From Azolla caroliniana (taxonomy: Eukaryota > Plantae > Polypodiophyta): 64,000 nucleotides of DNA. The notes beneath the pieces were generated by a model that was not told the DNA's origin, did not search any database, and saw nothing but the letters and a program-made list of their open reading frames with translations. The stretch's first letter is position 1; every line of letters starts with the position of its first letter. Positions 8,216-53,500 of the stretch are shown piece after piece. Both the position numbers and the translations under genes were made by a program. The DNA lies in the NCBI GenBank assembly GCA_043228905.1, contig JBHGNT010000012.1:4030001-4094000 (forward strand), given 5' to 3'.

Positions 8216-9283
8216 ACGTTCGAGAAGCTAAAGGAGAAGTATTGGTGGATGAGGTTGTACCGAGACGTGCACCAATTCGTAACAACATGCGAAAACTGCC
8301 AGATGCACTCCGCGATCCGACATTGAGCCGAGCTACACCCAACCTACCCACCGACCGTTCATTTCAAGTGGATGGTAGACTTAGTGACGATCCCGATGGG
8401 GGTAGGGCAGATGCGGTACCTAGTGCTTGCGCGAGGGGTTCTCGACAAACCAAGTAGAGGGCCACGCATTCCCGAAAGATGACTACAGCCATATGCATGT
8501 TCTTAATCAAAGAGTTGGTATGCCAGTACAGGTGCGTAGGAAAGATAGTAGCTGACCGGGGAGAGCTGGATGCGCAGGAAGCCAAAGATTTGTTCGACCG
8601 ATTAGGGGTTAAACTCTCCCTCACTACGGCGTACAACCCAGAGGCTAACGGGAAGGTAGAACGCAGGCATAGGCCGATCGTGAAGGCATTAGTACGCACG
8701 TGTGAAGGTCAAGTTAGGAGTTGGCTGCGGCTCCTACCTTACGCACTATGGGCGGACCGAACTATGCACAGTTTAGTGACCAGCTTCATGCCGGCGGAGC
8801 TGATGTACAGGCAGAAGCCGATGATGCCGGTGGAGCGAACAATTTCTTCCTGGGCCGCGGTGAACTGGAAGGACGAGATGAGCCAGGAGGAGCTGTTGGC
8901 AGCGCGGTTTCGACAACTCGAGCGAAGACCGGAGGACGTGCAACGGGCTAAGGTGAAGCTGCACACAGTGAGGGCGAGGAACAAGGGCCGGTTCGACCGA
9001 ATGCACCGGCTATGATTGAAGAAGATCGAGGATGGCGACTAGGTGTTGGTTTATGACAACAGCCTCGACAATCAACTAAAGGCAAAGCAGAAGTTTGTGA
9101 GGAGGTGGTTCGGGCCCTACATCGTGACGAGTGCGAACGATAATGGTACCTACCATCTTGCGGAGCTCGACGGGACGCGGATAGCGGTGCTAGTAGCCGG
9201 GAAGAGGATCAAGGCTTTCAAGAAGCGGCATGAAGACGAGCCGGACCTGGGACAACAATGACAACCGGTTTGGAGCGGGTGAT

Positions 9284-30736: not shown

Positions 30737-32334
30737 ATTATTTATATTATGGATGTTACATTGTATGTATTTCATCTAATTTATATGAGCTACTGCTTAT
30801 AAAGAATGTAAAGTCACATTGGAAGTTTAGGCTAGCATGGAGCCCAAGTGACTATAAATTCAAAATTTTCCAATATTCGATGTTGTTAGATAGATACATC
30901 ATACATATTGTCTAGTTCACATGACATTTCACCCACCTCATTTCAAGACTAGAGTCAACAAGGTATTACTCCAAAGTTTCTTTCTATGTTTTTGGGTGAG
31001 TTATGGGAAAGGAAACAAACATGTCAAAACATGTTCGCGTTTAGAAGTGGAAGGATCACGCATTCCACGTTTAGATTCCCTGTACAATGATGTAAATATA
31101 GACGGTGTACAAAAACTAGATACACTAGTATCACGTCTTATTCAATCTAGTTAATGTTTTTGATATTTACTTGCATTAACTGCTAAGAGAGATGACATTT
31201 GCTAGTTGTAGAATGAATATTTATAAACTTGGACTTACTCAAAACAAAATGATCTTAAATCGAACATTAACTCAAATGAGAATGAATTTGGAGAAGTTGG
31301 ATGAGATTTACACAAAAGATGTTTCGAGAACATTTTCTAAGTGGAAGATATGGATAATCAAATGCGATTAATAGTTCCACCTAGTAAAGGATTCTACATT
31401 TGAGAAATCTTTTTTTTTTTCCCAAAAAAAAACTCCTTTCATCAGTTATAAAATTTTACAAATGAGACGATTATGTACAAATCCCTGTAGGGACACAATA
31501 GTTCCATCTTATGTGGATGCCCATTGACTCAAGAAAGGGAGAGGATGACCATTGTTGGATGAAGGCTATTCATTGTCTTTCAACTCCATCGGAGCCGCCC
31601 TTGAGGCCATCATATTGGCTCTTTAGAGTGGCTACAATTTCACTCCATATCTCTTGTAGTAACCTTGTTGGATGCACGGTTTGGTTGGAGAAGACTCATC
31701 TACACCGTTGTCATGAAGATTTCCGGCTTTGGTGTAAAACCAGGATAAAATGGGCAAGTCGGCAATGTGCAACATGTGCACACATATAGTAAGAAAATGG
31801 TGTATAGAATAAGGGGGAGAATTTATCCCACATTGTAACGTCCCTCCCTCCTTGGGCTATAAAAGGAAGGGAGGAGTCTCTTGTGAAGGGGTTGCCTATT
31901 TTGAGTGAGAGAGGTATACCACTTAGGTTGAGGGTTTCTATTTCGGTTTTAGGGTTTTACTATTCTTCTTCTTCTTCATACCATTTCGGGTTTAGGGTTT
32001 CTTATTCATCATCTTCTTTACTTAGGGTTTCTTCTTCATCATCTTCTTAGGGTTCCATATAGTGTTTTCGTTCGGCCTATGCGGCCATGGCTATAAAGCG
32101 TTTGACATTTCTTAATATAACTCGTTTGTGTATCTTGCCTCCATCCATTCTATGTTTATGTCCTATTCTTTCTCCTCCCCTCTCGAGCTAAGCTTCCATT
32201 CCCCCTCTACTCCCTAGTCCAAGACCCCTGCGGTCCCGCCTAAGATCTTACACGTACTCGCGGAATACCACGACATCTTTGGTGAACCTGACGTGAAAAG
32301 GCGGTAAGGGAGGACGGAGATGGAAGACGAAGAC

Positions 32335-35300
32335 TGTAAAGAATCAGATATGGATTCTTGTGAAGCAGAAGAGATATGAGTTATGTGTGTGTATATGAGA
32401 GAGAGAGAGAGTGAGAGAGACAAGGAATAATACACAGAGAATACGCAAGGTAAAAGTATAATAACAAAGGAGAAAGACACAACCCTATACAAGGTGGGAG
32501 GAGGGTGCTTTATATAGTCACCCTCTCTCTTCATTAACTACAAGACTCATGGAGCATGGGGAATGAGAAAGCTCATAAGTTATGTGTCATAGAATATGAT
32601 TCTATGACTCATACTAAATGCTAGAATACAAAGTGGTGACATAGTGGTGACTCTTGACCGTTGGAGTGTCTATTCACTCTCAAGGTGAGTTCACACACTA
32701 GACCAAGTTGAGCTTGATTCTCAACACGCCCCCTCAAGCTCAAGTCGGGTCGGTTTCAGACGGTATCCGAAATCCGCTTCAACTTGCGTTTCGGAGTCCG
32801 CGTCGACTCGCTTTATGCGCTTGCGTTGTGCGTAGTTACGAAGTCTGTGCTTCGTCTTGCGTCTTTCTTCGCGGCTTTGCGCGGTAGATTGGCTCTTCAC
32901 TACTTCGTTGCATGGTTTAGGGTTTAGGGTTTAGCGTCCGTGTACCCCTCGAGTCGTATTGACATCGCGGACTTGTAGAGGATGCCACAATCCATTGTGC
33001 CGCTCACGTATCGTAGAACTTGCTTAGCGCAATCCAAGTGAGTATCACGCGGTGTTTGCATGAATTGACTAAGGAGACTGACCGGATAACTGAGATCGGG
33101 TCGAGTGATCATGAGGTAGATGAGACTCCCGATAAGTTGCCGATACTAAGCCGGCTCACACGCTTTGGTGCCGGATTTCGCATCTAGTTTGAGATTACGA
33201 TCGAGTGGGGTTGCCGCGGATTTGCACTCAGCCATACCGAACTTGTATAACAAGTTGAGGATGTAGTGCCATTGAGAGATCATGATTCCAGCCGGAGTCC
33301 GAATTACCTCTATGACGAGGAAGTAGTGGAGCTCCTTCATGTCCGTCATCTCGAACTTGTCGGAAAGGAGGGATTTGACCTTATTGATTTCGTCGAGATG
33401 CTCACCTCCAATGACTAGGTCATCCACATATAAAATGATGATGATCAGACTTGTGGAATTGCTTCGTATGTAGAGGGAGTTGTCCGATTTTGACATTCGG
33501 AATCCGATTTGATGAAGATATTGCATTATCTTCGAATGCCAAGCACGCAGTGCTTGCTTGAGGCCATAGAGAGGCTTCTTGAGTCGGCATACAACTTTCG
33601 GATGGGTGCTTGAGTTGAAGCCAGGTGGTTGGATCATGTACACCTCTTCTAATTCACCTTGTAGAAAGGCGTTCTTAACGTCCATTTGATGGAGGTGCCA
33701 CCCTTTTGCCGCGGCAAGCGCAATTACAGTCCGCACCGTCCTCATCTTTGCCACTGGGGCAAAGGTCTCTTCGTAGTCAACGCCATGCGTTTGAGCGTAT
33801 CCTTTCGCTACGAGTCGAGCTTTGTAGCAGTTTACGAAGCCATCGGCGTTATACTTCACCTTGTAGATCCATCTGCATCCGATCGCCTTTTTGTGTGGTG
33901 AGGTGGAAACGAGATCCCACGTCTCGTTCTTCCGTAGTGCCTACATCTCCTTGTTCATTGCTTCGATCCATCGCGGGTCCTTCGCGGCTTCCGAAAAGGT
34001 TTCCGGCTCCCGTACTGTCGCTACCTTCATCATAAAGGCGTAATGGTACGCCATATAATCGTTATAGCCGAATCGGGTTACGGGGTTCTTTTCACGGGTG
34101 GAGCGACGAAGCTTTTCATTTGCTGAGATGAGGGCTTTCTTAGCTCCGATTGGTACATCGAGGCCGCCGAACTCACTGTCGAGTGAGTGAGTCGACTCAT
34201 CGTCGTTGAAACGATCATCTGCGTATTCCACCATTTTTGCCTTGCCCTTGTCCATCTTCGGGCTAGGCCGTGATGTGCTTTGATCGCTCAAAGGCTCTTG
34301 TGGTCCGCTCAGTCGGGTCGTGATCAGACTCTCTTCGAACATGTACGTAAGGCGATCCTCATCCTCTATCCCTTGTTCGGCGGATTCCTGGTCGAGCAGA
34401 GTCGGAGTCGGAGTTGTCTCTGGTGCGTACCAGGATGCGAACTCGTCAAAAACGACGTCTCAACTTACTCGAGATTTTCGAGTTGAGGGGTTGTAGCACT
34501 TGTACCCCTTTTGCTCCTGTGAGTATCCTATGAGGATACATTTCTCCGACTTCGGATCAAGCTTTTGACGCTTCTCGTCGGGAATGTGCACGTACGCTAT
34601 CGCGCCGAATATCCGGGTGTGCGATAAATCTGGCTTCCTTCCGAAGTATTTTTTGTGCGGAGTGACCTCGTGCACGCCGGATGTTGTGCATTGGTTCATT
34701 AGGTAGACGACCGTATTTGCAGCTTCGGCCCAATATGACTTGGGCATATGCTTCTCGTTCATCATGGCCCGCGCTACTTCGAGGATGTGCTGATTTTTGC
34801 GCTCGACTACCCGGTTTTGTTGTGGAGTGTGTCGGCAAGTGAATTCTCGCCGAATTCCTTCCTTTTGGAGATACGCCGTGAAGGTGTCCGAGAAGTACTC
34901 CTTGTTGCCATCCGATCGAAGACAATGTACATGTCGGCCCGTGCCTTTCTCGACTTCATTCTTGAAAGTTTGGAAGTGTTCGAACACTTCGCTCTTTTGC
35001 CACATCGGGTAGATCCAAGTGTGCCTGGAGAAGTCGTCGACGAAGAGCACGTAATATCGGCATCCGCCGAATGTAGCCGTCTGCGCCGGTCCCCATACGT
35101 CGGAATGGACTACGTCGAGTAGACCTTTGCTCACGTTCCACTCTTTCGGGAATGGGTGTCGGTGTTGCTTGCCGAATTGGCACGCTTCGCATACACCTTC
35201 AATCTCCTTCTCTTTGAATGTTGGGAGTCTGATGACAACTCCTTTCGATTTCATTGCTTTGAGCTTTTGGAAATTTATATGGCCAATCTGCTTGTGCCAT

Positions 35301-37341
35301 AACTCTATGTCGGAGTCGGCTTTCATGCCCTTTGCGAACATGGCGGATTTCGTCTCGTGTGAGTTGAGAATGAACATTCGGCCCTCTCTTAGTCTGCGTG
35401 CGATAAGTCGGCCCTCTTTTTCAATGAAGCAACCGCCTTGATTAAATCGAACTTGCATCCCTTGCTCTACAATTTCGCCGACGGAGACCAAATTCTTCGT
35501 AATGGTCGGTACATGCAAGACATTTTTAATGTAATTTTGCTTACCTTCTTTTCCAAATGGAACATTGCCGATGTGCCGAATCGGGTGCATAGTGTCGTCT
35601 CTGGTTTCAACATAGCCGGGTCGGTCCGGCTCTCGAAGTTCTCGGAACCATTCTTGATGCGATGTCATATGGTTTGAGGCACCGGAATCGACGAACCATA
35701 TGTCTTCCGAACCGGAGGCACTAGTTGAGGTAGAGGCCGACATAGAGTTTGCTCTATGTTTCATCATGAACATTCCGCCACGGTCAAAGTTGCGTGCATA
35801 CATTCCGCCACGGTCGGAGTTGCATGCATACATTCCGCCACGATCTTCGTAGTCGGAGTTGTTCCCGTACATTCCGCTATACTCTTTGTAGTCAGAATTG
35901 TGTGCGTAATTCGTGAGTTGTCGGCTTGTGGAAGCCGATTCACGCATCTTCTTTCGACACTCTTCTTCGTGGTGGCCGAGCTTTCCGCAATATCCACATT
36001 CGATTGTGTTTTGACGGCTCGGGCCAGAGTGGAAGCTCCCCCTTCTTGTGAAGGTTCCTCGTTGGCCTCCGTTTTGCGGCCGAAATTGGGAGTTGTTGTC
36101 GTAGGTCGGACCTCGTCCGCCTTGTCCTTGGCCGAATCGGTCTCTCGCTTGTCCGCGTCCTCTTCCTCCATTAGAGTGCGTGTAGAGCATGTGGCCTTCC
36201 GACTCATTGCTCCTTGTACGCACGTGGTTTTCTTCGACCAATAGCATTGATTGGAGCTCGAAGAAGGAGGGAGATTTCTCCCGTGCTAGAATGGCGGTTC
36301 GCATCGTGCCGAACCGTGGTGCGAGGCCGCCGAGGCATATTTGCACCATCTCATCATCATCTATACTTACGCTTATTGAGCCAAGCAAGTCGCAAAGCTC
36401 CTTGATCTTCAAGGTGTATGTCGTGATGGACATGTCCCCTTGTTTAATGTTGTTCAACTCTTGGCGGAGTTGAAGCTTCCTTGCGGTCGTGTTGGCGGCG
36501 AAAATCTTTCGTAGATTTTCCCACACTTTCTTCGGCGTCTTCACTTCTCGAATGTAACCGAGCATGTGGTCGTGAACACATGTCGCCAAACAATACATCA
36601 CGCGGCTTGCGGCTTGCTCCCATGTCGCGTATCCGGGAGCCGCTTCGGCGGGTCGGTCTTCATGTGCTCCTTTGATGTAGCTCCAATAGCCTTGTCCGAC
36701 AAGGTATTCATGCATCTTGTACTCCCAAGATGCGAAGTTGTTTTGATCCAACTTCTCGGTAGGGAGAGCACTCCCCATTTGAGTATTCATTATGTCGATT
36801 CTTCTTCTTCTTCTTCTCTCTTCGAATGCGAGCTATGTAGCGAAGCTACGATAACGGTGAGCCGGTTCTTGGTCGTCGGCGTGGAGCACAACACACGATC
36901 ACGATGAGGCGAATGGGCTAGATCGAACTACCAAATCGCTCTGATATCATGTAAAGAATCGGATATGGATTCTTGTGAAGCGGAAGAGATATGAGTTATG
37001 TGTGTGTATGTGTGAGAGAGAGAGAGTGAGAGAGACAAGGAATAATACACAGAGAATACGCAAGGTAAAAGTATAATAACAAAGGAGAAAGACACAACCC
37101 TATACAAGGTGGGAGGAGGGTGCTTTATATAGTCACCCTCTCTCTTCATTAACTACAAGACTCATGGAGCATGGGGAATGAGAAAGCTCATAAGTTATGT
37201 GTCATAGAATATGATTCTATGACTCATACTAAATGCTAGAATACAAAGTGGTGACATAGTGGTGACTCTTGACCGTTGGAGTGTCTATTCAATCTCAAGG
37301 TGAGTTCACACACTAGACCAAGTTGAGCTTGATTCTCAACA
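32335..37341 (-). mobile_element. Ty1/Copia LTR retrotransposon, relatively young, RNase H missing
   Basis: 392-bp LTRs 32335-32726 and 36950-37341 (about 5 differences seen by eye); TSD AAGAC; iMet PBS TGATATCAGAGC; PPT AGCTTGAGGGGGCG. Confidence 0.95.
32924..36790 (-). pseudogene. Copia gag-PR-INT-RT polyprotein (776-aa ORF 34460-36790 plus broken downstream RT)
   Basis: CGYCGKLGHHEEEC, WFVDSGASNHM, VHSDVWGP, LRSDGNKEY, VERKN, KARLVAKGY, QMDVKNAFL, LYVDDL; ends at GYTDA. Confidence 0.93.
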
Positions 37342-37917
37342 AAGACGAAGACTTCACAGAGATAATGGCAAAGATTGTGATGGATTCTAGACGGAAGAAG
37401 GCGAGGTGAGGTGCAACTCAACAAGTCGTCGAGAGGGTGGTCGATCAAGTCGACCAGTTCAACGGGGACGATGTCCTGAGATTCTTAGAAGAACGGGTCG
37501 TGAGTGACTATGCACTACCATCGGAGGAGAGCTCGACGCGTGATGGATTGGAGGAGTATAACCTAGAGGCATTGGTATGGGAGGCATACGAGAGCGTGAA
37601 GGCGAAGTTCGAAGCCGAAGGAGGGTCTATTGTGGAGTTGGGCCCGAGCGGATTGGAGGATGCGGAGGAAGAAGCCTCCCTACGCATGGACGACGGGGCC
37701 TATGCGGAGGCCGAAAGAGCATACGACGGTGACGAGGGAGAGGGTGCGGAGCAAGCGACCCTCTCGTCTTACGGTGAAAGGACGACCATGGATGAGGCTA
37801 GTGACTATGGAGCGGGGAGCGCCACTTCGAGAGTGGGTGGAGGATTCAGGACACGGTGGCTCGAAACATCAAGCGGGGAGGAGACGAGCGGCGGTGCCGG
37901 GACCTTACCCACACCGG

Positions 37918-38024
37918 TGTCATGTTGTTACCCGCGTGCGTATAGAACAACGCAGGATCACGAGGGCCTTGGACCGAGGAATAACCGATTAGGAGTAGGA
38001 GCAAGAAAGACAACGGATGTGCTT

Positions 38025-38061
<37 letters not shown>

Positions 38062-41000
38062 TACACAGAAACCGCAACCGAATGAAACAACGGAAACGAG
38101 ACGAATGTGTATATGTATATATATATTATGATGAAAAAGGGGTTACAACCGGCAGGCCGGCAAGCGACAAATCTCCTACGCCTACGCACATGCACACAGA
38201 AGAGCGAGATGGAGACTTTGCCGAAAGCACCCGAGCATTCCACGGAGTAGAGTCAGCCTCCCGAAAACCTGCACAAAGCAAATACAGAGAAAGACAAAGG
38301 AGAAGAGCTCGGTCCCAGTCCGACAGCACTTCGTCTTTGACAAAAGCGATCCCTTTTACGATACCTCTCCCTCTCTTTTACAACCCAAGGAGGGAGGCCG
38401 TTACAACTTATTACATCATCTTTATTCTCGGTCCTTTCGGACAGAGATATGTCTCGATTTCCTACCTATCAAATCCGTGCGACCTAGGATATTCACATCC
38501 GCCGACTTGTACCTAAATATGTACATTACAACAAAACTTGTGCCTGTGTGTAAGGGCCGGTTCACGCACATCATTCTCCGATCCCGCCTAGGGATGGTTT
38601 TCTCCACGACATCCGCCCCCACCTCAACGCGCATCCACTAGTATGCGCCAAAATAGACTCTTGCCAGAGAAGACCGGCCCGCGCTTACCCTTCATCCTCC
38701 GGATCGTCATTTTCTCCGAACCGATCGTCCTCGCTATCCAAGTCGTCCGGGTCCGGTTCATCCTCGTGCCGCTTTTTGAATGCTTTGATCCTTTTCCCGG
38801 CCACCGGTACTGCCATCCTCGTCCCGTCATGCTCCGCGAGATGGTAGGTCCCGTTGTCGTTGGCGCTTGTCACCACGTAAGGCCCGAACCACCTCCTTGC
38901 AAACTTCCGCATCGCCTTGTGCTGGTTGTCGAGGCTACTGTCATATACCAGAACCCAGTCGCCTTCCTCAATTTTCTTCGGCCTTAGTCAGTGAGTCCGA
39001 TCGAATCGTCCCTTGTCGTTTACCCTCGCGGTCCGCAGCTTTTCCGCGGCTCGTCCCACATCCTCCGGTCTTCGCTCAAGCTGTCGGATTCGCGCCGCTA
39101 ACAGCTCCTCCCAGCTCATCTCGTCTCTCCAGTCCACCATGGCCCATGAGGAGATCTTTCGCTCCATTGGCATGACCGGCTTCTGCCCGTACATCAACTC
39201 CGCCGACATGAACCCGGTTACCGAACTGTGTGTAGTTCGGTCTTCCCACAACGCATAGGGTAAGAGCCGCGGCCAGTTTCTGACTTGGCCTCCATATGCC
39301 CGCATTAACGCTTTGACGATCGGCTTGTGTCCGTGTTTCCACCTTCCCATTCGCCTCCGGATTGTACATCATGGTGAGCGAGAGTTTAACCCCTAGTTGG
39401 TCAAACAACTCTTTAGCCTCTTGTGCGTCCAATTCTCTGCGGTCGACTACGATCTTTCCTACGCACCCATACCGGTATACCACTGCATCAATCAGAAATC
39501 GGCACACCGCCGTGGTCTTTTTGTTCGGCAACGCTTGGCCTTCCACTTGGTTCATTAGGTCCTCTCGAGCGAGCATCAGATATCGCATCTGCCCTACCCC
39601 TATCAACCATTGTCACTAGATCCACCATCCACTTGAAGTGGACGGTCGGACGGTAGGTCGGGTGGAGCTCGTCCCGATGTCGGACTATGGAGTGCATCTG
39701 ACAGCTTACGCAAGCCGTCACGAACCGATGCACGTCCCGGTATAGTTCCGGCCACCAGTACTTCCCCTTCAGCTTCTCGTGGTACGCCGTCAGCACTTCC
39801 ACCTGTTCCTCTTTCTTCACCACAACCCGGAGCAGGATGCCGTTTGTCTTCTTCGGGTGCTTCCATATGCACCCATCCCGTAGGAAGAATCGGTACGCTT
39901 TCTTCTGAATCCGGTTGGTCTCTTCCTTCATCCACGCCACGTCCGGTGTCATTGTCTTCAGGAACCCGTCGATCTGGAGCCACTCCCCATCGTACTTGCT
40001 CTCGTTGAACTCGTTAAGCGCCCGAGTGCTCCCCTTCCTTGTTGTTACGTAAGCCGTCTCGAAGAAGTCCACGCCGACTTCTTCGTCCTCCGAAACCATG
40101 TTGTCCTCATCATCGAATCTCGCCCCTGAAAGCATGTTGGCCATGGCGTTGTCCTTTCTGGAAATGTGTCGTATTTCCGGATTCAGGGACTTGATGTACG
40201 CTATCCATTTGAGCATTGCTAGGTCCGGCATCGCGCATTTGGAAACCATACCGAGAATCGGTAGGCAGTCCGTCTCAATGAACACCTCCGTCCCGATCAG
40301 GTAGTCATTGTCAGCCTTGACCGCCGAAACGATACCTCAGAGTTCGCGTTTAACATGGGCATACCCTCGTTGTTGTTCACTGAGGACTTTGGCGCCGAAC
40401 CGGATGGGGAACCTCATGCCATTCTCATCCTCCTAGTTTTCTACGGTCACGTAAATCGGAATGTCTTTACCGTAGACCGCTTTCCGGAGTGCCGACGCCG
40501 TAGCAAGTGCTTCTTTCATTTTCCGGACCGACTCCGTATGCTCCTCTCTCCACTCGAATTTACGCCCTTTCTTCAGCAATCCATAGAGCGGCTCTGCGAC
40601 GTTGGCATAATGCGGGATCCAGATATGGTAGAACACGCATGCTCCCAAGAATCTCCGGACTTCCGTGACCGAATTGTAGTCGCGCTTTATCGCGGAGATG
40701 GCCTCTACCTTGGCTAGCGACGGTTTCCGACCAAATGGCCCGCATAGGTGTTCGACGACCATGATCTCCGATTGCCCGAAGGCCTATTTTTCCCTGGAGA
40801 AGGTGAGCCTCGCGCCCTCTAGTCTTTGCAGCACCTTCTCGCAGTCATCGACGTGGTCCGCCACGAATTTCCGGCATCCGTCCGGTCCAATTGTCTCGTC
40901 CTTATCCTCCACCGGGCATCCTTTGATCGGGATGTTGTCTAAGAATGACATGGTGATGTCCGGGATACAATCCCTTAGCACTTTGTTCATTGCGTTCACC

Positions 41001-44000
41001 ATGTGGACTACCGAGTTCGTCCCTCCTTGCGGAAGGCTATACATCCGTACTAGGCTGAGAGGAGTCTGCATCGTCGTAATGTCCCCGCTCTCCCCGGCTA
41101 GCTGGAACTGATCGTATCTCGAGTATAGATCACCGACCGAGTAAATTGACTTTCCGGCGAAGGCCTCCGCGAACTCGTCTATGGTCGGTCCGATTCCTGC
41201 GTTAAGAATGGTCACCTTGTTCACCGGTTGCAGGTCCTAAATGAAGCGCAACGTGCCGTTCTTCTTGGGCAAGGTAAACCACCGCGTTAAGAATGGTCAC
41301 CTTGTTCACCGGTTGCAGGTCCTAAATGAAGCGCAACGTGCCGTTCTTCTTGGGCAAGGTAAACCACCGATTAGAATACGGAGCACTCGACGGTTCGAGG
41401 ATGCCCATATCAACCTTCTGTTTCAGCAGCTCCATTAGCTTCGGGATGTGAGCTCTGGGTACTGGAATCGGTTTGAGATTCCACGGTACATACGGTACCG
41501 TGAAGATCACCATCGGTTCCACAATTGTCAGCTCTACGCACCCAATCTCCTCCGGCGAGAATGCGAAGGCCTTTCCATGCCCCCAAGCATTCTCCAAAAC
41601 CGGTCCTCCTCCGCCGACAGTAGAAAGCCACCCCCACCGACCTTGAACTCTCATAGCATTATGTTGGTGAATCGGTGTCCTATGCCAGCCAGATCTCGTA
41701 AACTTGGGTCTGACGCGACCCCCTTCATCTGTAACTCGCTGCCCTCCGGCAAGGGTGCCGCGACTAGCCTCACCTTCCGGTCCACAGTCTTGTACTTCGT
41801 ATCCACTCGGGCCATCCGATCCGACTTGAGTCCTCTACCGAAGTCGGCGATGACTTCGTACATCTTTTTTGAACATACTGGAATCGTCCGGTCTTCACTA
41901 AGGCCCTCTCCGAACATCTTCCGTAACTTCCCCAAGGCGTCGTCAAGAGAGACTGCCTCCACGGCTCCGTTGATTTCCTCTTCGGGGGCGAGGAATCCGC
42001 ATGCCTTGAGTCGCTCTTCTGCCCGCTTCTTCTCCTGGCCAACGACGCTAGCTATTGTACAACCTCCGTTGTCGGAGAACCAAAATTTCCTACCTATGTT
42101 ACAGGATCTTCTGCCTACCGTGCATGTGTGGGGTTTTTCCAGAGTGTCCGGACTATCGCGTCCCCACGCCTTGATAGCCCTCTCTAAAAATCCCCTCAGC
42201 TTTCACCGCCGAGGGTCTCGCGGTTACGCTCGTGGTTCGGTCTACCGTCAGAAACTGAACGGAGTGACGCCCATCTTGGCTTTTGACTCGGGCATACGCC
42301 GAACCGTTGTCCATCACCTTCGTCTCCATGCGCGCCGCCGTGATGTACAGTTCTCCAAGTATCACCGAATGCGAGGACGTCTCCTGCACAAAGAAGTGTT
42401 GATCGATCTCGACATCGTCGATTTTCACTTGTACATTCGGGCAGGCTCCGTGTAGCTCCTCCATGATGCGCGTTGCTACCCGTATCTTCCACCTATGCTT
42501 GGTGTTGATCGACCACTTTCCCTTCTTGTAGAAGTCCATGGACATCAAGTTGATCTCGGAACCATGGTCTAGCAATGCCACCACCGGCTCTTGGACGTCC
42601 CCGATCCGAATAGGGGTTTCTGTAGTGGCCCTAGCCCAATGTAGACTCGAGTAGTGGCTTTCCACCAACTCGTCCTCCAGGGTCATGTCTTCTAGGTGCG
42701 TCATTCGCACCTCCACCGGCTTCTTAGGCTTCGGCTTCGTCGAAAGCCTTTTCTGCTTCACCAAGTCTACGATGGAGTCGTGGAACTCCTTCTTGGCGAT
42801 ACCAAGCACTTCCCTCAGCGACAACTCCACTTTGCTGTCGAGGATCCGTTCCTCCAGGACCTTTCATAGGTCCGTGGTCCTTTCAATCTCTATGCTCAAC
42901 TGGTAACTGGACTTCTTGGCCTTTGTCCGGTGCGCCGGATGCACTGACATCATTCTGCTTCGGCCTGAACCGAGTCTCATACTGTTGTGAAGGTCCAACC
43001 CCCCCGGTCTTTCCCGCGCGCTTGTCTTCCACTAAAACCTCGTAGTTCTGGCACACGGCTTCCACGAAGCCCGTCTTCTCTTCGACCGGGTCACTCCACC
43101 CGGTTACCTCCCGGACACGTCTTTCCACGTGGTCCATACCTCAAGCACCTCCGCGTGGATGCCCGGCATCGCCACCCGAGGGAATCGGGCCAGTCACCTA
43201 TCTTCTGGAATGTCCCTCATCACCATTTCGGCTCAGTAGGCCTCCAAGTAGCTCGTGGCGTCCTTTCCATCGAACCGGCCTATTGTGTTGACGATTGCTT
43301 CAATAGCCCTATCGAGGGCGCATGTGCCTTCACGCGCACTCAGTAATCGATCTATAGCTAAAGCCATGGCTTCTGCAAGCTCTGTTCCCCTCATCTTTTC
43401 TATTCCTCTATTGCTTGTTCACATTGGGTTCCCCAAATATGTCGCATTGTTACGCGCGTGTGTATAGAACAAGGTGGGACCACGGGGGACTTGGACCGAG
43501 GAATAACCGATCAAGAGTAGGAGCCAGAAAGACAATGGTCGTGCTTCCACACATAGACACACAGATACACAGAAACCGCAACCGAATGAAACAACGGAAA
43601 CGAGACAAATGCGTATATGTATATATATTTTTTGATGAAAAAGGGGTTACAACCGGTAGGCCGGTGAGCGACAAATCTCCTACGCCTACGCACATGCACA
43701 TAAAAGAGCGAGATGGAGACTCTACTGGAAGCATTCGGGCGTTCCGTGGAGCAGGGTCAACCTCCCGAAAACCTGCACAAAGCAAATACAAAGAAAGACG
43801 GAGGAGAAGAGCTCGGTCCTAGTCCGACAGCACTTCGTCCTCGACAAAAGCGATCCCTTTTACGATTCCTCTCCCTCTCTTTTATAGCCCAAGGAGGGAG
43901 ACTGTTACAACTTGTTACATCATCTTTATTCTCTGTCCTTTCGGACAGAGATTTGCCTCGATTTCCTACCTATCAAATACGTGCGACCTAGGATATTCAC

Positions 44001-44115
44001 ATCCGCCGACTTGTACCTAAAGATGTACATTACAACAAAACTTGTGCCCGCATGTAAGGGCCGGTTCACGCACATCATTCTCCGATTCCGCGTAGGGATG
44101 GTTTTCTCCACGACA
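37918..44115 (-). mobile_element. Two-LTR degenerate copy of the Trp-primed Gypsy family, with a gag deletion
   Basis: LTRs 37918-38611 and 43440-44115; TSD CCGG; PPT 38612-38623; degenerate PBS 43418-43435; PR (LLDHGSEIN), RT, RH and INT ORFs; 85-bp tandem duplication 41199-41368. Confidence 0.93.
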
Positions 44116-47100
44116 CCGGTTCTAGAGACTCCATCGGCCGGCCCGAGAACCAGCATGAGACCTAGAGTGATGGACGGTGGCGGCGGCAAGGCGGGCAACC
44201 AAGTTGACGACAAGGAGAACAAGGAAGAGGAGGAGGCAAGCGTAATCGAGGCTTGTGTAATTGGGGACGGGGTAGCCGCGGACAACGGACATGACAAGCG
44301 GCAGTGCCAGAACCTTACCCACACTGGTTCTAGAGACTCCAACGGCCGGCCCGAGTGCTGGTGTGAGACCTAGAGTGACGGACGGTGGCGGCGGCAAGGC
44401 GGGTGACCAAGATAACGACAAGGGGAAGGAGGTGGCTATGGACATGACGAGCGGCGGTGTCGGGACCTTACCCACACCGGTGCTAGAGACTCCGGCGGCT
44501 AGCCCGAGAGCCAGCGTGAGACCTAGAGTGACAAACGGTGGCGGCGGAAATGAGAATGAGGAAGATTGTAGCCGATGGAGGAGAGATCCCTTGACACCGG
44601 GGTCGGAAACTTCAACGGTTGCGTACCAACATAAGACCGAAGAGATGGGCGGTAGCTGTGAGGATGCGAGGCTCGGAGCGGACACGTGCGGAAGGACCAA
44701 AAGGGAGGCCGGGAGTGGCAAAGAGGAGAGAGTCAGGAATCGACCCGACTGGAAGATGAACCGGTCGGTAATCTGACACGACTAGAGGACAACGCGGAAG
44801 AAGATTGTAGCGGGGGCTAATCAACTGGGCCCGAACCAAAGAAGAGCCGGCAAGGCCAGGATTGTTCGGTCGAACCCGTACCGGCAAGATACGATCATGG
44901 AAGAGATTCGACCGAACCGGAACCCGATCGGTCGAGATAGATCCGAGCAAGGGCTATGCCGACATGATTGGAGGTCGAGGCTCACGAGTGACGACTACGG
45001 TCCGGTGGAAGACCGGAAACAAGAGGAACCCTCCACATCTATTCTAGAGACTTCGGCGGTTGTGGATTGACGTAAGACCGGAGGGACGACGGGTGGCGGC
45101 GAGGAGTCGAAGGCCGAAGCGGACGAGGTTAGGGTTTAGGGTATCCAGTGCAGAAAGATGGACGAGTGGGACGAAGAGGGCCAAATGGAGCCGGAAAACA
45201 CTACGACGACGAAGGAAGAAGAGGCCGACGTGGAGGTCGGGACTACGACAAGTGAAGGGCGTGAAACGGAGCATGCACTACGGCCGGCAAAGGGCCAAGA
45301 AACAAGCATGCACCCGGAAGAGCGGCAACGAGTGACCGGTGATAGTTGTCCGATCAAGCCTTTGAGAGGAGAGCATGGGACGGAAGGTGAAGGAGCGGTG
45401 AGTTGTCGGGATTGGCGGATGAACGACTAGAGCGGAGGATGGTGCGCGGAGAGCAAAGGGCTATGCACCAGGAAGAGAAAACGCGGCGTCCCGGAGGACA
45501 TGCGAGGCCAAGCGGGCCAAGAGGATGCAAGTCAGGATGAAGCGGTAATGAGAGCCGCGAAGGACCCCGATACAAAGGTCGGGATGATGGTACGCTCTAC
45601 CACGAGAGAGCATGGCGAGCAAGGGAGAAACAAGGAGCGCGTAATGGGGTCACCTGAGAACGTGTGTCTATTCGGAGGACGACATTGATGCACAGGAAGA
45701 GCCTACGGAAGGCAAGCGTGGAACAGAGAGAGACGGCACGTCGAGGTGCTCGGGACGAGGAGACGGTCGAACCAAAGAAGGGACACACGCGGCACCCGAG
45801 GCACGGAATCCAGCGTACAACCGGAGTGACCGGAGGCCTAATCGGAGGGCATACGTGGCAGACAAAGGAGGAGCGACCGGATCGACAACAATGTTCGGGA
45901 GGACCGATCGGGGAAGAAGGTGTGAGCGTCGGATATGGCGGATCAGATGGAGCCAACGGATCAGGGTAGGTAGGAGCCAACAAGGCGATCAGGTGCCTGG
46001 ACGACAGAGAACCTGGTTGATCACCGTCGCTGAAATCTCTCACCTTTTCCGTTCATGGCACATACCGGTGGATGTGCGGTTTGGTGGGGGTGGATGTCCT
46101 GAAGATTTTTGGCTTTGCTTTGGTGTAAAACCTAGATAGAATGGGCAAGTCCGCAATGTGCAACATGTGCACACGTATAGTAAGAAAATGGTGTATAGAA
46201 TAAGGGGGAGAATTTATCTCATATTGTAACGTCCCGCCCTCCTTGGGCTATAAAAGGAAGGGAGGGGTCTCTAATGAAGGGGTTACCTATTTTGAGTGAG
46301 AGAGGTATACCACTTAGGTTGAGGGTTTCTATTTCGGTTTTAGGGTTTTACTATTCTTCTTCTTCTTCATACCATTTCAGGTTTAGGGTTTCGCTTAGGG
46401 TTTCTTCTTCATCATCTTCTTTACTTTACTTATCCAGTTAGGGTTCCATATAGTGTTTTCGTTCGGCCTATGCGGCCATGGTTGTAAAGCATTTGGCGTT
46501 TCTTAATATAACTCGTTTGTGTATCTTGCCTCCATCCATTCTATGTTTATGCCCTATTCTTTCTCCTCCCCTCTTGAGCTAAGCTTCCATTCCCCCTCTA
46601 CTCCCTAGTCCAAGACCCCCGCGGTCCCGCCTAAGATCTTACACGTACTCGCGGAATACCGCGACACCGTTGTTTCCATAGAATCCAAAGAGTTATTGGG
46701 TTGATCAATTCCAACATATCTTGAGATTTGTCATTAAGAGAAGTGGAGTGGACATTGCCGCTGGAGGAGAAAAAAACCTCTTGTGCTTTTATCACCAAAT
46801 TCATCCCCTCCTCCTGATGCTCGTATCTGCCAATTGCGGTCTACCATGATAGCCAACATATATTTCCCCACTTGATTGAGCCTTGCACTTGGCATAATTG
46901 CAACAAGCGGCCAACCCCTTGCCATATTCGATGGGATGTTGGACAGTCCCACAGAACGTGTTGTATTGATTCTACTGCATATGGGCACGCTACACAATTG
47001 GGAGAACTAAGGTTCCCACGTTGCCATGCTCCCACCGGTAGGGACTTATGTATTAATAGCCATTGGAACATCGTAATTCGCCTCGCGTGTTGTTGTTTCT

Positions 47101-48827
47101 AGATTTTTTGCCAAAACTTGGTGATTATTGTGGGAAGAACTTGAAATGTGTGCCAGACCTTCGCAACAGCCGGCTCTCGGGTGGTTTGAGCAGCTAGAAT
47201 GTGGCGACCCAATCTAGTTGTGAATTGGAAGAAAGGGATGGGTTTGCTTCCTTGCCCTACGTAAGGATCACGCCATGTCCATTGCAAAGGGTCCCAACTG
47301 ACCTTACGTAGCCATGTGTTTTCATGAGTACATATATGCCAATCGGGTTGTACTTTGATCGGATCAAGATCTACAATCCATTTATGACCAATATACGTGA
47401 GTACTCGAATTGCGTTATTCTGTGTTGGTGTCTCAATGTCTCGTAGTTCAGAACCTTCGAGCATGTCTGTTGGTCTCGTACCTCTCAGGATCAGAGATCC
47501 CTCCTCCTCGTGGCCTATCCATTTCTCCATTGTCGTCCTTTGAGTAGCAGATTCCCTAATCAGTAGAGCGTTAATGATTTCCGATCTCATAGCCCATCCA
47601 CCCCTGATTTCATGGAGTATGTTTGCCTGATCTTGTAGTGGTAGTGACATAAACCGTCTCCAACATTCTATACTTTTTCCTGGATCTTCTGCAATGTATC
47701 CCCATGACAACCCCTTACGTGATCCCAGTAGTTGATTAGATTCATCCTTGATACATGGGTTCCGTAGGATACATTGACTGAGCCAGGCAGGTTCGGATCT
47801 CGGTTGATCACACTTGAGCCCTCGTCTAATGTCACACCATGCCTTCCACATGGATGCACTGAATCTATCCTCCAATTGGCGGGAGAAACTAGGTTTGAGA
47901 TCCATGTTTAGATTCCATCCCGTTTGGGGGGCCCAATTAACCCCTTTTCGTGGCCTAAAGTAAGCGAAACGTAACTACAATAGCATTTTCCAACAGTCAT
48001 TTCCTGGTTGGAGTCCTCACACCACAAATTTGGCAAGTAAGGCTTTTGATTGTGAAAGGGGATCAATAAGACCCAATCCCCCTCTCGACTTAGGCATTGT
48101 GAGCTACATGGTCTTCCTTACCAGACCAAATATAGTTGCAGACTAGTCGTTGAATTTGATGTATACTTTCCTAGGAGATTGTCTAGCATGATAGACTATA
48201 CCATGTTGTTGCGAGTAGTACTTGGTTTGCCACTATGATGCGACCCATTAGCGATAGTTTTTTCAAGTTCCAATGTATCAACTTTTGTCAAATGGAATGG
48301 ATAACGAGTGCAATCATAGTCTCAAATGGTATGTTAAAACCAATTTGGAAACCCAAATATTTGGTGCTCGCTCCTTGATTGATCCATTTGAAAGCGGGAT
48401 GTGGGTCCCACGCCGGATGTGTTTCATGAGAAAGCCATATTGCGCAAGATTTGTGCCAATTAATTTCTTCCATTGTCAGTTAATTTGATATACATTTATA
48501 TAAAAGGATAGTTCTCAATGAAACCTAAATATAAAATGTAGTTATATCTTAACATATGGTACCAGATGATATTAGCATTTGATATCCGAACTACAAAATC
48601 ATGATGAGTTTTGGGTGCATGCATGTAACTTGATATCTATAGTAACTTATATTGAATTGGTGGATGTAATCCATGATGGTTATATGATAAAGTTTAAGTT
48701 CCTTGAATAATACGTGTGGTTCTTAAACATCACAAGCTCATCTTTACCTTCTGCTTTGTGTGTGTGACTAACCATAAATGTGTATCAATATTCAAACACC
48801 AAACCATTGGTAATGCATAGCCTAGAA

Positions 48828-49017
48828 GAAAACTTACTATAACAAGCGACAACATTATATACCATTTTACCATTGAAACGTATAAAAAGAGTCCACTGAG
48901 AAAGAATTTCTCAAACAATTGAAAAACTTACTATAAAGAGCGACAACATTATATACTATTTTTCCATTGAAACATATAAAAAGAGTTCACCAAGAATGAA
49001 CTTCTCAAACAATTGAA
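48828..49017. repeat. Two ~94-bp tandem copies, AT-rich, just 3' of the methyltransferase remnant
   Basis: AACTTACTATAA...CTCAAACAATTGAA starting at 48831 and 48925. Confidence 0.8.
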
Positions 49018-49078
49018 TAAAACCATTAGATTAATATGTCCAAATGATTTTACAAAAAGAAGGGTGGCATTACATAAT

Positions 49079-50576
49079 CTACATGGCAATCATGGTATCT
49101 TCATCATTCTCCTCATCGTTGTTTTCAAGACTCTCATCCAAATCTTGTGCATTGGTATTCGCTCCAGATAGGCTGGCAATGGTGAGATCTTCTAAAAGTT
49201 CATCATTGAGCTCAATAAGCTCCAAAGGCTCACCAGCCAATGGAGGGATCAGCTCACAAGAAGCTGTTTGAAAACATTCAATATCCGCAATGAGCTTTGC
49301 CCCAACCTCCTCATCTTGATCTGGGCATTCCCACAACGCTTTGATCCTCATGTTTATAAAACTTACTTGCTCCTCGTCCTTCTCCAATGCAACAAAATTG
49401 CGAAAGAGTTTCAATGCACATGCTGATGTTGTACCTATTACATAGTAAAGATATGACTTAGCTTGATAAGAAGTTTCAAGTATCCTATACAACAACGATC
49501 AATTAAAATAAGCCTAACATACCTGTGCCAAAGAATAAGTCCAATATCCAATCCCCCTTCGCTTGAGAACATCTCAATAAGGTGCATTATCAGAGGTTAG
49601 GGCTTCTGGTAAGGATTGACAAGACCACATTGTAGTGAGGATTTTTGGCTACGGTGAGAAACCCGCATGGGACGAATAAAACGGGGATGTGCAACATTGC
49701 ACATGCACTTAGGGAACTTGTAAAATAAGAATAAGAAAACAACTGTAAAAGGAAAGGTGAAATGTAATGTGCTAAAGTACACCACAAAGTTCATGAAGTG
49801 TAAATGTGATGTGCACTTAGGTGCACATGCACATGTGGACTAAGGGGAATGCATGGAAGTAAGGGTGTAATAAGTAGGGGGCATGGTGGTGTGTGAGTGA
49901 AAATGAGAGGAGAGGGAGTTAATGCCCCATTAATGTCTCCTCCTAAAATCAAGGCAAATATCCCTCTTTACAAAGAGTGGAATATTTGGCCTCTCCTTTT
50001 GTAATAAGCTCACCCTTTTTCACTATAAAAGGGGGTGAGGAGGCACCATTGCGGGGGTCACCATTTTGTCGTTTTGAGGCAGACCGTTAGGATTTTTTCT
50101 TCTTCATCTTATCCCTATTTCATTTTAGGTATTTGGTTTTAGGTTCCCCTTTCTATCATTTTTCTTGCTCTTGAGTAGGATTTCGTTTATCTTCTTTCTC
50201 CCTATCCAGTTAGGTTTTCGTCTAGTTGTGCTTCAGCCCAGCCTATTTGGTTGCGGTTGTAGATCATATCGTGGCTTTTCATAATGAAATTTGTTTGATG
50301 AACCTTGTCTTAGTTAGATAGCTAAAGATCTTGTTAATCTTCGCACAATGTTCTTCCCATTTTGTGCATGGAAGCGCATAAGTGTTACGCTCCCATTTCC
50401 CCCTCTTTTACTCCCTAGTCCAAGACCCCCGTAGTCCCGCCCACGCCGACATGCATGCACAGATTTCTGCGACAACGTTCTGTTGTGGTAACATGTCTCA
50501 ATTTACGAGTCACTATTGGATATGCAATAAGATTAGAACCCCCAACCTCATTCGAATGCTCCTTTATCCGTTGTTT
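49079..50576 (-). pseudogene. C-terminal half of a beta-class N4-cytosine/N6-adenine DNA methyltransferase (N6_N4_Mtase-like), intron-containing, disrupted
   Basis: Joining 50576-50479, 49630-49523 and (after GT-AG intron 49522-49435) 49434-49079 gives SNLIAYPIVTRKLRHVTTTERGLVNPYQKP*PLIMHLIEMFSSEG/DWILDLFFGTGTTSACALKLFRNFVALEKDEEQ...RIKAL; one stop (49599-49597) and one extra G (49553-49557). Confidence 0.8.
49631..50474 (+). mobile_element. Solo LTR of the Trp-primed Gypsy clade, inserted in the methyltransferase
   Basis: TGTAGTGAGGATTTTTGG...GCGACA; U5 motif CTAGTCCAAGACCCCCGTAGTCCCGCC; TSD ACAT/ACGT; reading frame restored on removal. Confidence 0.85.
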
Positions 50577-50589
50577 TCATATTTCATCA

Positions 50590-53500
50590 ATTATGTTATC
50601 ACTTCACCACGACATCCAATCATCCTTGGTTTGTCTTGGCTGAAGGCACAAAATCCACTTGTTGATTGGCGCAATCACTCGATTACTTTCTCCCAAACTA
50701 GCTCGGAGGTGCAAGCAATATCTCATGTTGTTGCAAGCGCTCACCCTCCCATTAATGCAGGAATCAGCTCCAAGGCGGATGCTCACATCCCAGTCACAAC
50801 AAGGAAAATAGTGTATAGTGCCTCGTCGAGCAATCCAATGAGGACAACTACTGACTCACTACCATCCAAGTATGAAGACTTCAAGGACGTATTTGAGAAA
50901 AAGAATGTTGATCACTTACCCGAGCATCGATGCTACAACTGTCTAATCGATCTGCAAGAAGGTGCCAGTCCTCCCTTTGGCTCAATTTATGGGTTGTCGG
51001 AACCAGAACTCCAGGCACTCCGAATGTATCTCAATGAGAACCTTGAAAAGGGTTTTATTCAACCCTCAAAATCACCAGCAGGAGCTCCTATTTTGTTCGT
51101 GAAAAAGAAAGATGGATCCTTATGCCTCTGCATCGACTATCGGGTCTTAACAAGATTATTGTTCACAACCGCTACCCACTGCCTCTCATCCTAGAGTTGT
51201 TGGATCGACTCTGGACTAGGAAGATCTTCTCCAAGATTGACCTACGGGGAGCATACAATTTGGTACGGATCAAACTTGGAGATGAATGGAAAACCTCCTT
51301 TAGAACGCACTACGGACATTTCGAGTATAAGGTAATGCCTTTTGGCCTCACTAATGCTCCTGTAGTATTTCAGCATATGATGAATGACATATTCCGAGAA
51401 TATCTAGATCATTTTGTTGTGATCTATCTAGATGATATCTTGGTCTTCTCTTCGAACATCAAGGAGCATACTCGACATGCCAGGTTAGTCCTCACCAAAC
51501 TTCGCGAGCACAGACTCTATGCTAAAAGTGAAAAATGTGAATTTGATCATACTTCTGTAGAGTTTCTTGGGTATGTCATTTCGACACAGGGAATCACAAT
51601 GGACACACAAAAAGTCAAGACTATCCAAGAGTGGGTTGTCCCAACTCGGGTACAAGTTGTGCAATCATTCCTTGGTTTTGCCAATTTTTATCGTCGCTTC
51701 ATCAAAGGATTCTCATTGATCGCACAACCTCTCATTGCTCTTGCCCGCAAGGATGCTACTTTCGAATGAACAACAGCTACCCAAAAGACGTAGTACGACT
51801 TGCTGAAACAAGCCTTTACTATGGCACCAGTTCTTTTACATCCTGACCCAACTAAGCCTTTCCAAGTTGAAACGGATACTTCCGATTTTGCCATTGGGGC
51901 GATCCTCTCCTAGCCAAATGAGGTCGGTGTGATTCACCTGGTGGCTTACGACTCCTGCAAATTCACGGCCCCAAAAATCAACTACCCCATATACAACAAG
52001 GAGCTTCTCGCTATTATTGCTGCGTTTGAAGAATGGAGACCCTATTTAACCAGGGACAACACCGTATCCAAGTGATTACCGATCACAAAAATCTAATATA
52101 CTTTTCTACCACACGAAACTTAAATCGTAGACAGGCACGATGGTCGACCTTCTTGGCAAACTATGATTTTGAGATAATCTTTCGACCCGACGCTCAACAC
52201 GCGATGACCGATGTCTTATCCCATCGATCTGAGTTCGAGCTCACTCCGGAGGATGAAGCCTATGTTTAGCAGTCCTAGAGTTTGTTAAAGCCTAACCAAT
52301 TCTACAACTTCACGACTTTCTTGCTCCAGGATGACTCTTTGCTCAAGCAAAAAGCTAACGCCACTACGACTGACAAGTTCGCCACGGAGGTAAAGTCAAG
52401 TATCACAAACCCCTCTCATGAACCCAAAAGACCTGATTTAGCTCATTTTACAAATCAGGATAATCTTTTGTTTCGAGATAATCTTTTGTGTGTCCCAGAA
52501 GGTCCTTGTCGGACAAGGGTGCTTCACTAGTGTCATGATGATCTACTTGTTGGTCATTTTGGCATTGCGAAAACCTTGGAGTTGATATATCGGGGATACT
52601 GGTGGCCACAACCATGGAAATTGGTCAAAGAGTTCATTAAGTCATGCGACGTTTGTGCTCGCTCTAAAGCATCTCATCATAGACCATATGGTCTCCTTCG
52701 CCCTCTCCCAATCCCCAAACGGCCTTGGGCCTCTCTTTCCATGGACTTCATCACTGACCTTCCCTTTGTTGGTGGTTATGACTCGGTATTCGTCATGGTC
52801 GATCGCTTCACCAAGATGGCTCATTTTGCTCCATGTGCTAAAACCATTACCGGAGAGGAGACAGCCGATTTATTTTTCAAAAATGTGGTTCAACTACATT
52901 GACTCCCAAACGATATCACTTCTGATCGAGGACCATAATTTGTTTCCAATTTCTGGCAGCGCCTTCTGCGAACCTTCAGTTGTACTATGAATCTATCTTC
53001 CGCTTATCATCCGCAAACCGATGGACAAATGGAGCGGGTTAACCAAATCTTGGAACAATACTTGCGGTGCTCTCCTAGTTACCAACAAGACAACTAGGTT
53101 GACCTTCTCCCACTTGCTGAGTTCGCCTACAACAACTCTCTCCATGCATCTACAGAAGTTACTCCATTTTTTGCCAACTACGGTCTCCACCCCCGCTTCA
53201 ACATTTCACTTCCCTCTGACTCTGTCAATCCTTCTGCGGAGGACCGGGCACGTCTCTCGCAGGATGTACATCGTGATCTTTGCTTGGAGCTTAGCCTCAT
53301 TGGCGAACGCTACAAGGAGCAAGCTGATCGTCATCGCTTAGATGCTCCCCAGTTCGAGGTAGGAGACTTTGTTTGGCTTCCCCGTCGCAATATTGCGACC
53401 ACTCGTCCTTGTCCAAAGCTTGATTACAAGAAGTTAGGCCCTTTCTGAATCATTGAGAAAATTGGTGCCATGGCTATCCGCTTAGAGCTACCATCCCACT

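Follow-up and report, generated by a model that had tools for sequence, protein, structure and literature searches.

How a bacterial-type DNA methyltransferase gene came to lie, spliced and broken, among the transposons of the fern Azolla caroliniana, and what such a gene might do there, is the question raised by a 64-kb stretch of contig JBHGNT010000012.1 (positions 4,030,001 to 4,094,000; the whole stretch is referred to as the window). The first-pass annotation of this DNA had described the C-terminal half of a horizontally acquired amino-methyltransferase and had offered transposon cargo as a possibility. In the window lies a dead remnant, the right half of a TIR DNA transposon with many copies, intact ones of which bear a spliced ParB-like/amino-methyltransferase gene, and the cargo proposal is now well supported by the TIRs and the DUF7869 transposase of an intact paralogous locus, L002. 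By sequence inspection, the gene pieces on the minus strand were confirmed at the positions first proposed, in the following layout (strand is given where it applies):

31028..31500, minus strand: remaining 3' non-coding part of the transposon, with its right TIR (31028-31062; TIR match with 2 mismatches)
31500..48450: nested insertions dividing the element's 3' part (self-comparison, Pfam of ORFs; borders approximate)
31709-32281 and 46095-46672: LTR pair in the nest (self-comparison)
32335-37341: copia element in the nest (Pfam of ORFs, self-comparison)
37925-38611 and 43447-44115: LTR pair in the nest (self-comparison)
47099-47974: ORF of a LINE-like fragment in the nest, with an A-rich tail near 31410 (LINE identity by sequence resemblance only)
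48450..49078, minus strand: 3' non-coding part of the element (collinear alignment above all 30 shuffles at 4 of 11 loci tested, namely L009, L015, L023 and L024)
49079..49434, minus strand: last exon, encoding the end of the methyltransferase domain and an acidic tail, with stop codon (61 relatives among 67 candidates, 66-90% identity)
49435..49522, minus strand: 88-bp GT-AG intron within motif I (sequence inspection, paralogue comparison)
49523..49630, minus strand: 3' part of the second-to-last exon, with the PxQKP motif and the first half of SAM-binding motif I (PF01555, E=1.2e-6)
49631..50474: solo LTR inside this exon (TG...CA ends; target duplication 49627-49630/50475-50478)
50475..50590, minus strand: 5' remnant of the same exon (tblastn with residues 88-121 of fern protein P0108), 73-78% alike to intact loci by blastn and cut upstream at an inspected junction with a Ty3/gypsy-like element
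50591..53450, plus strand: 5'-truncated Ty3/gypsy-like pol remains in place of the element's upstream part (ORF translations)

The extent originally given, 49079..50576, stands in its positions and ends slightly early, as element-derived sequence reaches about 50590. On its two sides the solo LTR has 4-bp target copies that differ at one position (ACAT/ACGT), and the effective insertion is therefore 848 nt, a length that is skipped at this site by paralogous Logan contigs in 4/4 DNA runs. The exon part next to it is broken twice, by an in-frame stop (49597-49599) and by one extra base near 49553 that is missing from paralogue contigs, again in 4/4 DNA runs. Both the insertion and the death of this copy through one stop, one frameshift and the LTR were thus described correctly from the start. 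The transposase, the ParB exon and the catalytic exon are absent throughout the 64-kb window in tblastn of the L002 peptides. This agrees with the earlier view that the catalytic half was lost at a retroelement junction, and the element at that junction is Ty3/gypsy-like by its ORFs. Downstream of the gene, the 3' non-coding part consists of two collinear pieces (49078-48450 and 31500-31028) with the nested LTR elements and the LINE-like fragment between them. The second piece aligns above shuffles with 10/11 loci tested, and the right TIR has been displaced 17 kb from the gene pieces by the nested retroelements.

Several minor features of this region were also observed. The copia element is young (LTRs 98.7% alike, 5-bp duplication) and sits in an older LTR element within the transposon's 3' end. 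A 94-bp tandem duplication (89%) is present at 48829-49016 within the 3' non-coding part, and a perfect 85-bp tandem duplication at 41199-41368, in a gypsy pol region, may be either an assembly artefact or very recent.

The identity of the gene was examined with the check that had been suggested, a Pfam search of the rebuilt peptide. A 35-residue query from 49521-49626, with X at the stop and at the frameshift, scored 29.1 bits with PF01555 (N6_N4_Mtase), above the cut-off of 26.7, while the other three window pieces gave no match in the Pfam scan; the fern protein P0108 reaches 57.3 bits with the same profile. Together with the modelled fold of a homologue and the motifs of intact relatives, this supports the assignment to the beta-class amino-methyltransferases of prokaryotic type. 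Paralogues were drawn from 43 metagenome loci, a lower bound on their number (about 1100 stretches estimated), with the caveat that repeats may be collapsed or joined into chimeras in such contigs.

The intron in motif I, a central claim of the first-pass annotation, is real. It is conserved as GT-AG in 19 of 22 copies, with a length of 68-93 nt, and is 44-64% alike among them, compared with 65-83% for the flanking exons. The four mapped introns of the gene are GT-AG in 11/11, 14/14, 15/16 and 19/22 copies and mostly 68-116 nt long. Two Ceratopteris richardii proteins are annotated as spliced at the window's junction, and in gene calls that do not remove the intron, variable sequence that cannot be aligned lies between the alignable exons. 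Splicing of the paralogues at this junction is further indicated by a 345-nt contig (depth 3.6) of run X9, a run guessed to be RNA, which skips exactly L002 7259-7351, i.e., the 93-nt intron shifted by a 2-nt ambiguity; it is the one contig that provides splice evidence from reads. Run X9 carries the species label of the runs that match the window best. Another X9 contig stops at the exon-3 donor of L002. Run X11 yielded nothing against L002, and no RNA run is among the listed matches to the window copy. In a probable-RNA contig of X9 from a related transposase, 257 nt of the transposase 3' part (L002:642-898) are skipped as well; the ends of this gap are not GT-AG in L002, and it may be a subfamily-specific intron or a deletion.

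The carrier of the gene is best seen in L002 (9353 nt), which contains a complete unit of about 8.6 kb bounded by inverted repeats, the first at its start and the second at 8595-8620. Its transposase is an 829-aa ORF matching PF25273 (DUF7869, E=1.8e-53) and is putatively Sola-like on an equation of DUF7869 with Sola1; links to DUF7869 clusters in Atlas and candidate acidic triad motifs were also observed. The second gene, with six exons and 975 aa, is arranged head-to-head with the transposase. A TIR of about 35 bp is present in 20/43 loci with the positions AACAC conserved, all 22 of 22 outer flanks are distinct, and two loci (L005 and L006) are 99% alike inside and differ in their flanks. 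Both ends are present in L002 and L038, where TIRs surround transposase sequence; with the many insertion sites, this identifies a TIR DNA transposon. Moreover, DNA runs X3 and X5 cover L002 throughout, transposase included, at 80% likeness or more (30 of 30 bins). Transposase and methyltransferase occur together in 2/43 loci only, L002 and the deleted L038, and most contigs are too short to show both. On a contig that is long enough, L005, the 5.9 kb upstream of a truncated element copy contain a host-type SDR gene (an intronless plant-type short-chain dehydrogenase ORF at 1250-2074) and no transposase. L038:219-2641 is a 2.4-kb internally deleted derivative with both TIRs, in which the 3' half of the transposase (62% to L002) is fused to the last exon of the methyltransferase. 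Based on these data, the methyltransferase gene is almost certainly an accessory gene of the transposon.

The terminus of the element and its target preference were also considered. The likeness of one outer flank to an uninterrupted repeat in the window begins just outside AA, and the transposon terminus is therefore placed there. A 4-bp target duplication, AWWT, has been reported for insect Sola1 (PMC3845634), and an A-ending duplication for Ectocarpus Sola (PMC12477816). AWWT was found in 0-1 of the 22 flanks, whichever terminus is used, and the insect preference is therefore not followed here; 9/22 flanks end in A with the AACAC terminus. A matching pair of target-duplication flanks was found at none of the loci, and the two flanks of L038 differ. 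Open copies (n=14) and broken ones (n=8) showed no significant difference in CpG depletion (p=0.25). GATC in the TIR was considered as a Dam-like target and rejected, as it is neither conserved among subfamilies nor enriched.

Paralogue search and inspection of flanks and motif IV had been proposed as a way to find intact copies, and such copies are present. In every one of the 13 loci that span the last three exons, the spliced frame is open, with DIPY as motif IV and DLFSGTGTT as motif I, and 6/8 are open from the long exon on. Over the methyltransferase core, dS was measurable in 24 of 78 pairs, the others being saturated or near-identical; these 24 have a median dN/dS of 0.024 and a maximum of 0.10. 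A profile search of 1.84 billion representatives recovered a family of 218 at E<=1e-10, with Ginkgo biloba, Chara braunii (2), Adiantum nelumboides and Riccia sorocarpa named among 10 members looked up. Relatives are carried by Chara, Riccia, Ginkgo and two ferns (Ceratopteris and Adiantum), and many of them share the N-terminal domain. The full-length relatives came from this profile search; a search with alignment A2 gave no protein of 470-2000 aa. One Chara braunii protein (P0119, GBG86584.1) contains two tandem ParB-like plus methyltransferase units, which may stem from a gene call that joined two neighbouring elements.

In the phylogeny, which had been suggested as a further check, 19 family rows are separated from 10 prokaryote rows by a branch with an SH-aLRT of 100; such a tree shows separation, not the donor. 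The element's clade is sister to a Ceratopteris protein, and several deep paralogous lineages exist within ferns. Scans of prokaryote genomes and IMG/VR, which detect close relatives only, found no close relative. The proposed horizontal acquisition is old, at least common to Chara and land plants, and not peculiar to the Azolla caroliniana genome.

Motif IV lies N-terminal to motif I, as in the beta class, and DIPY is aligned with the DPPY of CcrM and MboIIA. Among 58 relatives covering this motif, D is the first residue in 51, N in 5 and S in none; neither SPPY nor DPPY occurs in any of the 58, SPPY is found in 0/13 intact loci, and distant relatives show variants such as DLPR and DVWY. A phage protein annotated as a beta-class methyltransferase carries DVPY. 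In a PDB profile search, 6mA beta enzymes ranked first (HpyAVI at 9e-15, MboIIA, CcrM, RsrI), followed by N4CMT (5.7e-6) and PvuII (0.016). An AlphaFold2 model of homologue P0149 (41-row alignment, pLDDT 79) matched CcrM with Z 23.6 (rmsd 2.8, 218 aligned), M.BceJIV with 23.2, MboIIA with 21.8, N4CMT with 20.6 and PvuII with 19.7, fold Z-scores that separate 6mA from 4mC enzymes poorly. Judged from sequence, the encoded protein is probably an active enzyme. The choice between 4mC and 6mA, first considered impossible to call, now leans moderately to 6mA on sequence and model comparison and still allows no firm call.

The front part of the protein was predicted to adopt a ParB/Srx fold, intact copies of about 975 aa thus combining this domain with the beta-class methyltransferase. 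Residues ~98-240 of the P0149 model matched PadC (Z 9.2, rmsd 3.1, 99 aligned), KorB (8.2) and ParB-N (7.7), then SerK and sulfiredoxins, and among the viral library matches are phage proteins with a ParB name that align with the two domains together. By sequence, ParB likeness was found in none of Pfam, PHROGs, NCBIfam, HHalign against two phage domains and a PDB sequence search, and a poor model of the element's own N-domain (pLDDT 42) had no Foldseek match. The usual ParB nucleotide motif is G-x-x-R. The corresponding box reads G-x-H-(S/T/C/Y) in 6/7 proteins checked and G-C-N-S in the Ginkgo protein, so that S, T, C or Y stands at the arginine position in all seven and in the loci. With this arginine replaced, CTP clamping is doubtful. 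Atlas language-model features of the N-region of the long exon (L002:5143-6114) resemble clusters of fungal DUF3723 (score 0.96), a Starship-associated family that may be ParB-like.

A candidate target for such a protein lies upstream of the long exon, where the palindrome TCGATAC-N3-GTATCGA is repeated in arrays; in L002 these lie in the first intron. They show subfamily-specific symmetric flanks and were located as follows:

L002:3657-4068
L007:120-421
L018:34-556
L019:550-818

In total, 29 palindromes have a 3-nt spacer, compared with 2 at all other spacers from 0 to 10, and none occurs in five simulated sets; these counts are non-independent because the arrays are tandemly amplified. Palindromes are present in 9/43 loci, including the most diverged subfamily, in which the flanking letters differ yet stay symmetric, and they are kept between subfamilies with saturated synonymous sites. 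They are absent in L013, for which 729 nt upstream of the long exon are available, and in the window. In L002, the arrays lie at 3.6-4.1 kb, far from the ends, and TCGA occurs 18 times in the first intron against 3.6 expected; many palindrome starts are 32-40 nt, or multiples thereof, apart. That the palindromes are self-targeting sites of the methyltransferase appears slightly more probable than the reverse.

Intact relatives carry a conserved methyltransferase gene, a predicted ParB-like front end and a palindrome array, and the element therefore likely marks its own DNA. In the proposed mechanism, a protein dimer would use the helical region that follows the ParB domain to recognise TCGATAC-N3-GTATCGA, would stay near the divergent promoters and would write a non-5mC mark, most likely 6mA, on the element. 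Such a mark could keep the transposase and the methyltransferase expressed against host 5mC silencing, in a manner resembling VANC (excerpts of PMC5735166) and the DAM-carrying LTR elements, for which raised 6mA and transcription are described in the available part of bioRxiv 10.64898/2026.05.21.726589. The explanation as a whole, in which the accessory protein binds internal palindromes and methylates the element's DNA, most likely at adenine N6, has about an even chance of being correct. Against it stand the departure of DIPY from DPPY, the loss of the ParB arginine, the occurrence of palindromes in 9/43 loci and the joint presence of both genes in only 2/43. A broader reading, more tentative and rather doubtful, is that an old lineage of streptophyte transposons, extending from Chara to Ginkgo, uses a ParB-derived module on a parS-like array and a phage-type enzyme writing 6mA or 4mC to keep itself active. 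If true, non-5mC DNA methylation in land plants would have a hidden source that is directed by sequence, and such elements would represent a ready-made programmable methylation tool.

Several other explanations must be weighed against self-marking with 6mA. The same accessory protein might write N4-methylcytosine, e.g., on the CG of TCGA, and so occupy the cytosine that the host would 5-methylate. The TCGA in the palindrome half-site and its excess in the L002 first intron, the good fold matches to N4CMT and PvuII, several viral matches annotated as cytosine-N4, and the repeated specificity switches reported for the domain family (passages of PMC8885841) are in line with a 4mC writer, which is nevertheless unlikely given the lack of SPPY in all 58 relatives and the top rank of 6mA enzymes by both sequence and fold. 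A comparably unlikely alternative is that catalysis is weak or irrelevant and the protein, whose fold binds DNA and SAM, is a DNA-binding helper (regulating its own gene or assisting transposition, as TnpA or VANC do). Such a role would accommodate the non-canonical DIPY, the DLPR and DVWY of distant relatives and the missing ParB arginine, and DIRS1-borne methyltransferase domains were judged inactive by Iyer et al. (PMC4738411, as excerpted). However, the catalytic D, the aromatic residue and the SAM-binding motif are kept at a dN/dS of about 0.02 and from Chara to Ginkgo, and DVPY is found in an annotated phage enzyme.

It is also conceivable, with a low probability, that the enzyme is active and does not target its own element. 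In that case the palindromes would be bound by the transposase or would be repeats born from hairpins, and the mark would fall on a short motif throughout the genome or on the excised intermediate. The absence of upstream palindromes from L013 and the tandem amplification of the arrays point this way, and transposases that bind motif clusters and activate their own elements have been described (available portion of bioRxiv 10.64898/2026.08.24.746577); on the other hand, the arrays are situated 3.6-4.1 kb inside L002, away from the ends, where transposase sites usually lie, and a constant 3-nt spacer with variable letters fits a protein dimer, for which a ParB-like domain is at hand. Least probable, to the point of being nearly negligible, is a domesticated host methyltransferase of the DN4MT1 type carried passively, as in Pack-MULEs. 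Although the relatives in Ceratopteris, Adiantum, Ginkgo, Riccia and Chara are annotated as ordinary genes, purifying selection is strong between TIR-flanked copies, several deep paralogous lineages exist in ferns, the motif is unlike the TSPPY of DN4MT1, and the head-to-head layout is fixed and, according to the passages seen of PMC12477816, present in a brown alga too. Self-marking by the accessory protein is thus retained as the preferred explanation.

With regard to known systems, Marchantia DN4MT1 (bioRxiv 10.1101/2021.02.12.428880) and bdelloid N4CMT (PMC8885841) had been named as the nearest comparison. They are likewise eukaryotic beta-class proteins of prokaryotic origin with PF01555; compared by description, not by sequence, and from partial sources, they are host genes with SPPY that make 4mC and have no ParB domain or transposon. 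A closer counterpart is the ParB-methyltransferase accessory gene of Ectocarpus Sola1 transposons. In the available passages of PMC12477816, Sola1-1_Ec32 and similar green and red algal transposon proteins include a gene for a ParB-like plus N4C/N6A methyltransferase, encoded in the opposite direction to the transposase and 1104 aa long against ~975 aa in the plant element, the termini start with AAC in both (AACCG there, AACAC here), and the same self-marking hypothesis is proposed. The brown algal element differs in having 21.5 kb and a 282-bp TIR, compared with ~8.6 kb and ~35 bp in the land plant, and those passages mention neither a palindrome array nor a test of selection, the state of motif IV or an occurrence in land plants. 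The likeness is one of published layout, not of sequence, and common descent of the accessory genes is not implied.

Among prokaryotic enzymes, CcrM, M.BceJIV, M.MboIIA, M1.HpyAVI and M.RsrI share the motif order IV before I, PxQKP and the fold (Z 20-24), whereas the plant proteins have DIPY for DPPY, an N-terminal ParB-like and helical region, introns, a transposon setting and 16-22% identity. Fusions in Streptococcus phage Javan93 and Gardnerella phage AB1 also have ParB_N followed by N6_N4_Mtase in one chain, but they are ~415 aa long, lack a long helical spacer, have N-domains with no significant sequence similarity and fall outside the plant family in the tree; ParB-Tls loci (PMC4738411, in part) are a comparable case. 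VANC of VANDAL elements likewise acts, as an element-encoded protein, on the element's epigenetic state and targets repeated non-coding motifs, and is not a methyltransferase (PMC5735166, passages available). The DAM- and DNMT-carrying elements (bioRxiv 10.64898/2026.05.21.726589; PMC5890265; both as excerpts) have a similar accessory epigenetic role, but are retrotransposons with other enzyme classes.

Since the layout of Sola1-1_Ec32 is already in print (PMC12477816, as excerpted), the design is known, which, together with the death of the window copy, limits the weight of the finding. What is new is that this known class of transposon accessory methyltransferases, with a predicted function, has a member in land plants. 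The literature search, whose coverage did not extend to key subscription papers, found no description of a land-plant ParB-methyltransferase transposon, its palindromes or its selection; Sola or methylase is not mentioned in PMC7466625, nor ParB in the main text of PMC12973397. Few N6A-MTases have been noted in land plants (Iyer et al., the part available of PMC4738411), and the element bears on whether land-plant DNA has genuine 6mA or 4mC beyond Marchantia sperm and on how DNA transposons withstand 5mC silencing. It is compact, high-copy and recently mobile, its enzyme is intact, a motif for binding and a site of the mark can be proposed, and the algal hypothesis of 2025 therefore becomes directly testable in plants.
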